The translations under genes were made by a program, and so were the position numbers. A stretch of 7,690 nt of DNA. Origin: a virus (Duplodnaviria > Heunggongvirae > Uroviricota > Caudoviricetes). Under the pieces are notes generated by a model that had not been told where the DNA came from, made no database searches, and was given only the letters and a program-made list of their open reading frames with translations. The stretch is from the IMG/VR virus record IMGVR_UViG_2597490227_000004; one strand, given 5' to 3'. This document shows positions 1,785-2,334 of the stretch, piece by piece; positions within the stretch are counted from its first letter, which is position 1, and each line of letters opens with the position of its first letter.

Positions 1785-2024
1785 CTATTTCCTGCGCATG
1801 TCACGTAACTTCTTAATGTGTTCTGCCGTTTCGATCTCTTCTGCTATCCGATCTGCATCAGCTTTATTCACAGGTTCAAAGTCATGATTAAAGCGGAACA
1901 TGCTGGCGATACATGTTCTGCCTTTTCGGATGTAGTGAACTTTGTTGTGGGTAGAACGCAGGATTTTGCAGGGAGTGCCGTGGTGGTCGACGTACCAGGT
2001 GTTAGGGTCAATCACTCTGAACAT
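1785..2024 (-). CDS. Hypothetical phage protein (79 aa), basic C-terminus
   Basis: Intact ORF co-oriented with the operon, AAGG 8 nt upstream of ATG at 2024. The start overlaps the upstream gene's end by 17 nt. I recognise no family with confidence. Confidence 0.5.
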   Translation of the reverse strand: MFRVIDPNTWYVDHHGTPCKILRSTHNKVHYIRKGRTCIASMFRFNHDFEPVNKADADRIAEEIETAEHIKKLRDMRRK

Positions 2025-2334
2025 TCTTGACCTTGTGTTGTGCGGATTGATATTCAGTGCTGATATTCACCTTTATAGCGAACACCTTTACCGGTTTATC
2101 GCCAAAGTGCGGATGTGTGATTGTCTTCACTTCATATCCGTCATACGGAACATCAATTCTGCGACTGGAATCGTCGCGCTTCGGATATCCCTTTGTGATA
2201 ATCAGGCGGTCATATTCCCGGAACATAATTCGCTTATTCCAGTAGTCATTACACAAGCGATACTCTTCCGTTTTCTCTCCGCGAATCATGGCATCGAAGT
2301 ATTCACTTTTAACAGCAAGTTGCAGGTTAGCCAT
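2008..2334 (-). CDS. ASCH-domain (PUA-like fold) protein, about 108 aa
   Basis: Translation contains IRGEKTEEYR, matching the ASCH hallmark GxKxxExR. ATG at 2332-2334 overlaps the TGA stop of the upstream TraR-like gene (TGATG), indicating translational coupling. Confidence 0.65.
   Translation of the reverse strand: MANLQLAVKSEYFDAMIRGEKTEEYRLCNDYWNKRIMFREYDRLIITKGYPKRDDSSRRIDVPYDGYEVKTITHPHFGDKPVKVFAIKVNISTEYQSAQHKVKNVQSD

Follow-up and report, generated by a model that had tools for sequence, protein, structure and literature searches.

The stretch of DNA analyzed here (7,690 nucleotides, hereafter the window), from the virus record IMGVR_UViG_2597490227_000004 (Caudoviricetes), represents the left arm of a phage 21/ev207-type lambdoid prophage integrated at icd. 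On its minus strand, at 2008..2334, it carries a gene for a 108-residue protein predicted to adopt the ASCH fold, which is the subject of this work. The gene starts with ATG (2334-2332) and ends with TGA (2010-2008), and its product, which begins with MANLQLAVKSEYFDAMIRGEKTEEYR, is identical to the RefSeq protein WP_000002139.1; the longest open reading frame (ORF) listed at this place, 2008..2337, has a GTG start. A Shine-Dalgarno-like sequence, AAGGGGGA, can be read at 2342-2349 (minus strand), 7 nucleotides upstream of the ATG and within the 3' end of the preceding gene, which encodes a TraR-like protein; in the phage 21 record, a ribosome-binding site (RBS) is annotated at the corresponding position. 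The TGA of the TraR-like gene (2336-2334) and the ATG of the ASCH gene have one base in common (TGATG), and the 3' end of the ASCH gene extends 17 nucleotides into the start of the DUF4222 gene (at 2024). A preliminary description of the window, made from its sequence, had placed the gene at 2008-2334, coupled tightly to the TraR-like gene and overlapping a 79-residue gene downstream, and our analysis bore out each of these points. Because the TraR-like and ASCH genes lie on the same strand and share a base, and the RBS of the second lies within the first, their co-expression, which that description had suggested, appears plausible.

The protein matches the PHROG family 625 (phrog_625, function unknown) over its full length (E = 2.4e-51; residues 1-96 on positions 1-96 of the 98-position profile). 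Its homologs form 654 clusters at 90% identity in a word-indexed search, 3,443 clusters at 90% identity in a search with a profile of diverse sequences, and 1,314 clusters at 50% identity in an exhaustive search. Given the phrog_625 match and the 654 and 1,314 clusters, the gene is real, and it evolves under strong purifying selection. The usual relatives are 93-94 residues long and lack the C-terminal 15 residues of the present protein (residues 94-108, encoded at 2011..2055 on the minus strand), a tail delimited from homolog lengths and sequences, alignment column occupancy, and model confidence. The tail is predicted to be helical with low confidence, the predicted local distance difference test (pLDDT) score being 46-61 over the last 18 residues of the model, and the last part of its coding sequence overlaps the DUF4222 start; it is peculiar to the phage 21 lineage, having arisen where the gene joins the DUF4222 module. 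The gene product is best explained as a minimal stand-alone ASCH-fold protein that consists of a ~93-residue core and this lineage-specific 15-residue tail.

The octapeptide characteristic of ASCH proteins, here in the form GxKxxExR, is represented by G19-E-K21-T-E-E24-Y-R26 (codons at 2257..2280, minus strand), within the peptide IRGEKTEEYR (residues 17-26, nucleotides 2257-2286). This is the sole G.K..E.R match in the six-frame translation of the window, where 0.08 matches are expected from shuffled sequences; such a motif by itself is weak, only suggestive evidence. Among 126 diverse relatives (36-57% identity to the query), K21 is present in all, E24 in 125 (with Asp in the remaining one), R26 in 123, and G19 in 118. 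W32 is found in all 126 as well, F13, R35, G49-Y50-P51, G66, and H74-x-x-F77-G78 are likewise near-invariant, and position 12 (Tyr in the present protein) is aromatic in 124 of the relatives. The more general superfamily pattern, GxKxx[E/T/S]xR, located where helix 1 ends and strand 2 begins, is also present in the protein.

Two AlphaFold models, one computed from 50 close sequences and the other from 130 sequences down to 44% identity, displayed the same beta1-alpha1-beta2-alpha2-beta3-6 barrel, with pLDDT values of 82.4 and 86.4, respectively, and a core above 90 in the latter. A Foldseek search with this ASCH-like barrel returned two chains of 3iuw and nothing else at E < 0.1. The 3iuw protein (~80 residues, an uncharacterized “activating signal cointegrator” homolog from Enterococcus faecalis) has 16% identity and no significant sequence similarity to the present protein; the motifs that distinguish the present family are W32, GYP, and THPHFG. 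We take 3iuw to be a member of the Pfam family DUF3850. On the strength of the predicted structures and the octapeptide, we conclude that the protein belongs to a divergent subfamily of the ASCH superfamily that the Pfam model misses; the membership is settled, as far as prediction can settle it, by structure and not by sequence profiles. The earlier statement that the GxKxxExR signature marks an ASCH/PUA-like domain thus holds through the predicted fold and the near-invariant octapeptide, but not through sequence profiles, which stayed below threshold.

Among the characterized ASCH proteins, YqfB is an N4-acetylcytidine (ac4C) amidohydrolase with the catalytic residues K21, T24, R26, and E74, and proteins of its type showed no nuclease activity (PMC9599836). 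A 2026 preprint described removal of ac4C from tRNA by 19 of the 19 ASCH proteins tested, of both the GKTR and GKER types, and found the Lys and the Glu (or Thr) of the octapeptide to be essential; in TthASCH, Tyr14, which sits 9 residues before the Lys, was essential too, and Tyr14, Arg28, and Tyr81 were found important for the reaction with the nucleoside (10.64898/2026.02.27.708502). Activity on tRNA has thus been reported for glutamate-type (GKER) proteins, such as TthASCH, EOLA1, and the ASCH domain of TRIP4. The present protein has K21 and R26 in common with E. coli YqfB (PDB 9kyf) but carries Glu24, as do 125 of the 126 relatives, in place of Thr24, and has no alignable counterpart of Glu74, so that the K21/T24/R26/E74 set is incomplete; furthermore, YqfB passes the Pfam ASCH model, whereas the present family does not. 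The Lys/Glu dyad of the glutamate type, in contrast, is found in the protein and practically throughout the family (K21 in 126/126; E24 in 125/126, plus one Asp), and the spacing from Y12 to K21 equals that from Tyr14 to Lys in TthASCH; H74, H76, and F77 are candidate counterparts of Tyr81. The known glutamate-type proteins (TthASCH, PDB 2dp9; EOLA1; the ASCH domain of TRIP4) are cellular and comprise 121-160 residues or parts of larger proteins, whereas the present family resides on mobile elements and shows additional invariant motifs. Because of the replacement of Thr24 by Glu and the lack of an alignable Glu74, we file the protein, by analogy, as one that probably works like a glutamate-type ASCH protein and not as a YqfB ortholog.

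The glutamate-type octapeptide, the invariant Lys and Glu, and the aromatic residue at the Tyr14 spacing point to what we regard as the best explanation, with a probability of about 40%: an N4-acylcytidine (ac4C) amidohydrolase with a Lys21/Glu24 dyad, or a nucleobase binder that uses the same cleft, made early. Through read-through and translational coupling, the protein would be made early after infection or induction, along with the TraR/Orf73-like modulator of RNA polymerase. The conserved cleft would bind a nucleobase and the Lys21/Glu24 dyad would hydrolyze the N-acyl group from cytidine, making the protein an ac4C-type “eraser” that acts on host tRNA or free nucleosides. More likely than a part in the control of lysogeny would be a general role in helping the element to become established in a cell it has newly entered, given that the family is also present in virulent phages and conjugative plasmids.

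Several considerations weigh against this explanation. We infer both the step from fold to activity and that from activity to a benefit for the phage, and we likewise infer that the conserved residues line one cleft. The ASCH fold does not fix the chemistry, since BapA, a larger ASCH-like protein, is a 5-hydroxymethylcytosine (5hmC) DNA glycosylase, and ZmASCH is a weak Mg-dependent single-stranded RNA (ssRNA) nuclease (PMC5615036). The generalization of the deacetylase activity comes from a preprint and is based on overexpression; according to the same preprint, the ac4C nucleoside was not a substrate of the glutamate-type proteins ZmASCH, TRIP4, and EOLA1 in earlier work, and the authors of the preprint consider that the activity could be an evolutionary remnant in some members (10.64898/2026.02.27.708502). 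No conserved neighbor pointing to a pathway was found in 75 loci from different proteobacterial species or among 88 immediate neighbors. At the level of sequence, the protein scored 14.3 bits with Pfam ASCH (PF04266), below the gathering threshold of 21.2 (E = 0.067), in an alignment limited to residues 6-28 (model positions 1-23); a search of NCBIfam gave no match, and no solved ASCH protein was retrieved from the PDB with phmmer. When profiles of 50 and 126 sequences were run against the PDB, the matches (a xylosidase, eS1, and 3iuw at E = 0.38) did not rise above chance level. An hhalign comparison with an alignment of the YqfB family, nonsignificant in both global and local modes (P = 0.076), covered the N-terminal motif only, pairing K21, E24, and R26 of the protein with K21, T24, and R26 of YqfB.

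The same profile results also bear on whether the motif is fortuitous and the protein not a relative of ASCH at all, which we consider scarcely credible. The Pfam score is below threshold and confined to 23 residues, the motif is expected 0.08 times per window, and no solved ASCH structure matches significantly in sequence. Pfam ASCH, subthreshold for the protein itself, is reached by 11 of the 126 relatives at E <= 0.01, and DUF3850 (PF12961), the Pfam model of which does not match the protein, by four (best E-value, 0.0017), with no further family recurring; precomputed Pfam domains are absent from all homologs.

If the protein does no chemistry, it could be a reader that binds RNA or modified-base DNA via the PUA-like cleft, as the EVE, YTH, and SRA domains do, and thereby shields or marks nucleic acid or tunes translation or transcription early in infection. 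We view this as a somewhat unlikely alternative: the absolute conservation of Lys and Glu, which are catalytic in the characterized ASCH enzymes, suits chemistry better than mere binding, several ASCH proteins showed no nucleic acid binding when tested, and the methyltransferases found next to some members are not conserved as neighbors across the family. The precedent of ZmASCH (from Zymomonas mobilis; PDB 5guq) raises another possibility, that the protein is an ssRNA nuclease responsible for Mg-dependent trimming or degradation of host or phage transcripts. This is improbable, considering that ZmASCH, at 143 residues, is larger and contains extra elements, its Tyr47, Lys53, and Ser128 could not be mapped onto the present protein, and its activity is described as weak; the closer structural neighbors, 3iuw, PH0355, and YqfB, are not known to be nucleases, and YqfB-type proteins showed no such activity.

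As a stand-alone gene, the family is widespread in mobile elements, namely, temperate and virulent phages, IncC plasmids, and elements resembling integrative and conjugative elements (ICE-like elements). About a quarter of the complete E. coli genomes (1,487/5,426) contain the gene, and it occurs in 333 phage records, both temperate and virulent. Some 130 genomes of virulent Salmonella Jerseyvirus phages carry a family gene among early and replication genes; in the P2-like Ralstonia phage RSA1, it is located directly upstream of the primase gene, and jumbo Klebsiella phages have it as well. Furthermore, 1,283 plasmid records, 1,025 of them conjugative, encode a family member, and a large block of matches at ~55% identity takes in the IncC plasmids, which encode the homolog WP_000746034.1 as part of their backbone. 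In the IncC plasmid pAM04528, a 92-residue homolog with ~55% identity (6986-7264 of locus L167), annotated as hypothetical, is encoded last in an operon with a DNA cytosine methyltransferase, and genes for an N6 methylase, topoisomerase III, and the MobH relaxase are nearby; the mobile element that holds a homolog in Pseudomonas aeruginosa also encodes KfrA, an SNF2 helicase, and a PAPS-reductase-like protein. Because virulent phages, plasmids, and ICE-like elements retain the gene, a role in regulating lysogeny is unlikely, and a general function after entry into the cell appears more likely.

This distribution also accommodates a counter-defense enzyme, which would erase an acyl or other mark placed on nucleic acids or nucleotides by host defense (for example, by a GNAT-type toxin) and so protect incoming elements or, in a variant, would destroy a nucleotide-derived signal. 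Phages carry the gene in their early regions, and conjugative plasmids and ICE-like elements have it beside methyltransferases, within accessory regions. In addition, the Lys/Glu dyad is conserved, and ASCH proteins accompany (PIN)-GNAT-EVE operons in prokaryotes (PMC7641849). We nevertheless rate this possibility as a long shot. It is argued purely by association; the literature searches turned up no link of the family to anti-defense, and no match was obtained at E <= 0.1 in the PADLOC library, which is composed of defense, not anti-defense, proteins.

Among ~125 diverse relatives, about 8-10 (P0148, P0156, P0172, P0173, P0200, and others) are extended at the N or C terminus by a segment that has two CxxC pairs and resembles a zinc ribbon; no Pfam domain was found in these extensions, which could be real fusions or products of miscalled starts. 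Other apparent fusions were discarded. A reverse transcriptase-ASCH protein (P0193) looks chimeric, with a subthreshold, truncated RVT_1 match and an ASCH part that begins at profile position 13, and the “fusions” of Ea22, ERF, and Bet with ASCH (P0122, P0013, and P0061) look like read-through or gene-calling artifacts at the overlapping junction.

The coupling to TraR invites the notion of a dedicated partner of the TraR/Orf73-like zinc-finger protein that acts jointly with it on RNA polymerase, which lambda Orf73 binds to reprogram host transcription (PMC9239242). In addition to the one-base stop/start overlap, the TraR-ASCH-DUF4222 arrangement in ~22 close viral loci, the CxxC...CxxC extensions on some relatives, and a zf-dskA_traR gene upstream of the ASCH gene in one Comamonas locus speak for it. 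We consider it very unlikely all the same. Among 80 closely related viral loci, TraR is directly upstream in those ~22 and DUF4222 downstream in ~24, and the flanks vary: most of these relatives have other upstream genes, and in Stx2 phage II, the TraR-like and ASCH genes are ~2.4 kb apart. In the virulent Jerseyvirus phages, Ralstonia phage RSA1, and the IncC plasmids, no TraR homolog is annotated next to the gene; phmmer detected no TraR-like ORF within 3 kb in any of the 75 loci from different proteobacterial species, and a Pfam scan of the 88 immediate neighbors found zf-dskA_traR once and no family more than three times. Apart from ASCH itself, the families present in more than five of the 75 loci were antisense shadow ORFs of ASCH and a downstream integrase cluster. 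TraR was accordingly rejected as a conserved partner; with no conserved neighbor in the family, the pairing is specific to this phage lineage.

In the remaining viral loci, which contain 94-residue variants, the upstream gene varies (proteins of 434 residues, EaA-like, and of 143, 100, 72, and 132 residues, among others), and nearly all the upstream proteins (L027-L082, with the ASCH start at ~3001) end in ...QEVNRG, in an 8-nucleotide overlap with the ASCH start. This overlap marks a conserved mosaic recombination junction, which brings along the end of the upstream gene, whatever that gene is. Downstream of ASCH in two unrelated loci (L051, where it has 266 residues, and one of the 75 proteobacterial loci), there is an ORF of 227-266 residues that starts with MxIH[FY]HG[ST]P; it matched no Pfam family at E <= 0.001 but may resemble DpdA/TGT-like DNA transglycosylases.

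The surroundings of the gene in the window are of the phage 21/ev207 type. Over positions 1700-2700, identity is 100% with Escherichia phages ev207 and PhiR63_2 and 97.5% with phage 21, and in E. coli SK1144, the same block adjoins icd, the phage 21 attachment site, with icd beside int. The gene order is int, xis, DUF4222, ASCH, TraR, orf61-like, DUF1382 (orf63), DUF1317 (orf60a), exo, bet, and gam, all on the minus strand. The integrase is encoded at 105-1292 and the excisionase at 1292-1645; N runs at 482-555 (74 bases) in the former and 1299-1489 (191 bases) in the latter make both proteins incompletely readable. The 79-residue DUF4222 protein (1785-2024) matches Pfam DUF4222 (E = 3.6e-19) and phrog_285, and the TraR/DksA C4 zinc-finger protein (2334-2555), the counterpart of lambda Orf73, matches zf-dskA_traR (E = 6.7e-9), phrog_54, and TIGR02419. 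Next come the orf61-like ORF (2749-2931), DUF1382 (2942-3133), DUF1317 (3106-3294), exo (3285-3965), bet (3962-4747), and gam (4753-5049); further upstream of gam, on the same strand, are ORFs of the kil/cIII region and counterparts of ea10 and ral, identified by position from the phage 21 annotation. A 31-residue ORF just upstream of the TraR-like gene (2562-2657, minus strand) corresponds by position to CPT_21_39 of phage 21, a 29-residue “putative secreted protein.”

Within the leftward early operon, the ASCH gene occupies a variable slot of the exo-xis block, proximal to int and downstream of the conserved orf60a-orf63-orf61-orf73 genes. In lambda, the same slot of this operon, between orf73 and xis, is filled by the accessory genes ea22, ea8.5, and orf55, the products of which are unrelated to the present protein, and the ASCH gene is absent; in Shiga toxin (Stx) phages, a family gene is present along with ea22-like genes. 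A consensus scan detected a terminator-like hairpin, AGGGAGCTACAGGCTCCTT, followed by a T run between the orf61-like ORF and the TraR-like gene (2605-2633, minus strand), although the number of terminator-like sites in the window does not exceed the shuffle expectation. If this hairpin is functional, the TraR-ASCH-DUF4222-xis-int block would need antitermination. Phage HK022 (X51962; locus L162) has an annotated tL4 terminator (271-299) at the 3' end of a partial ASCH homolog, upstream of xis.

The ASCH label itself is already known: RefSeq names the identical protein WP_000002139.1 “ASCH domain-containing protein,” some sources name relatives “RNA-binding protein” or “ASC-1-like (ASCH) protein,” and a 2017 survey placed a cluster of prophage-type “ASCH domain-containing proteins” among pathogen-specific RNA-binding proteins (PMC5571608). 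In this respect, our finding is ordinary and agrees with an annotation that the databases already contained. Our searches of the literature yielded no experiments on members of the family, and a paper on modeling of the exo-xis proteins does not mention this one (PMC8614690).

What the present analysis adds is a firmer basis for the label, that is, a fold and an invariant motif instead of a profile match, and a far broader family than the early operons of lambdoid phages suggest, with its 1,314 clusters at 50% identity, its virulent phages, and its place in the backbone of IncC resistance plasmids. It also offers a concrete hypothesis, by analogy, of an ac4C-type amidohydrolase that would use K21 and E24, for which the recent work on ASCH deacetylases provides a simple and cheap biochemical test; the breadth of the family across mobile elements, the invariant, catalytic-looking dyad, and this testability are what keep it of interest. 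There is a slim chance that the protein is the prototype of a very large uncharacterized ASCH subfamily of mobile elements that erases an N-acyl cytidine mark on cell entry, either host tRNA ac4C, thereby reprogramming decoding, or a mark of a GNAT-type defense; if so, it would represent a new class of nucleic acid “eraser” in the conflict between mobile elements and their hosts. Should the amidohydrolase activity prove true, the newly proposed ASCH “eraser” chemistry would extend into mobile-element biology, and Stx and lambda-like phages would have a function assigned to one of their numerous unexplained exo-xis genes.
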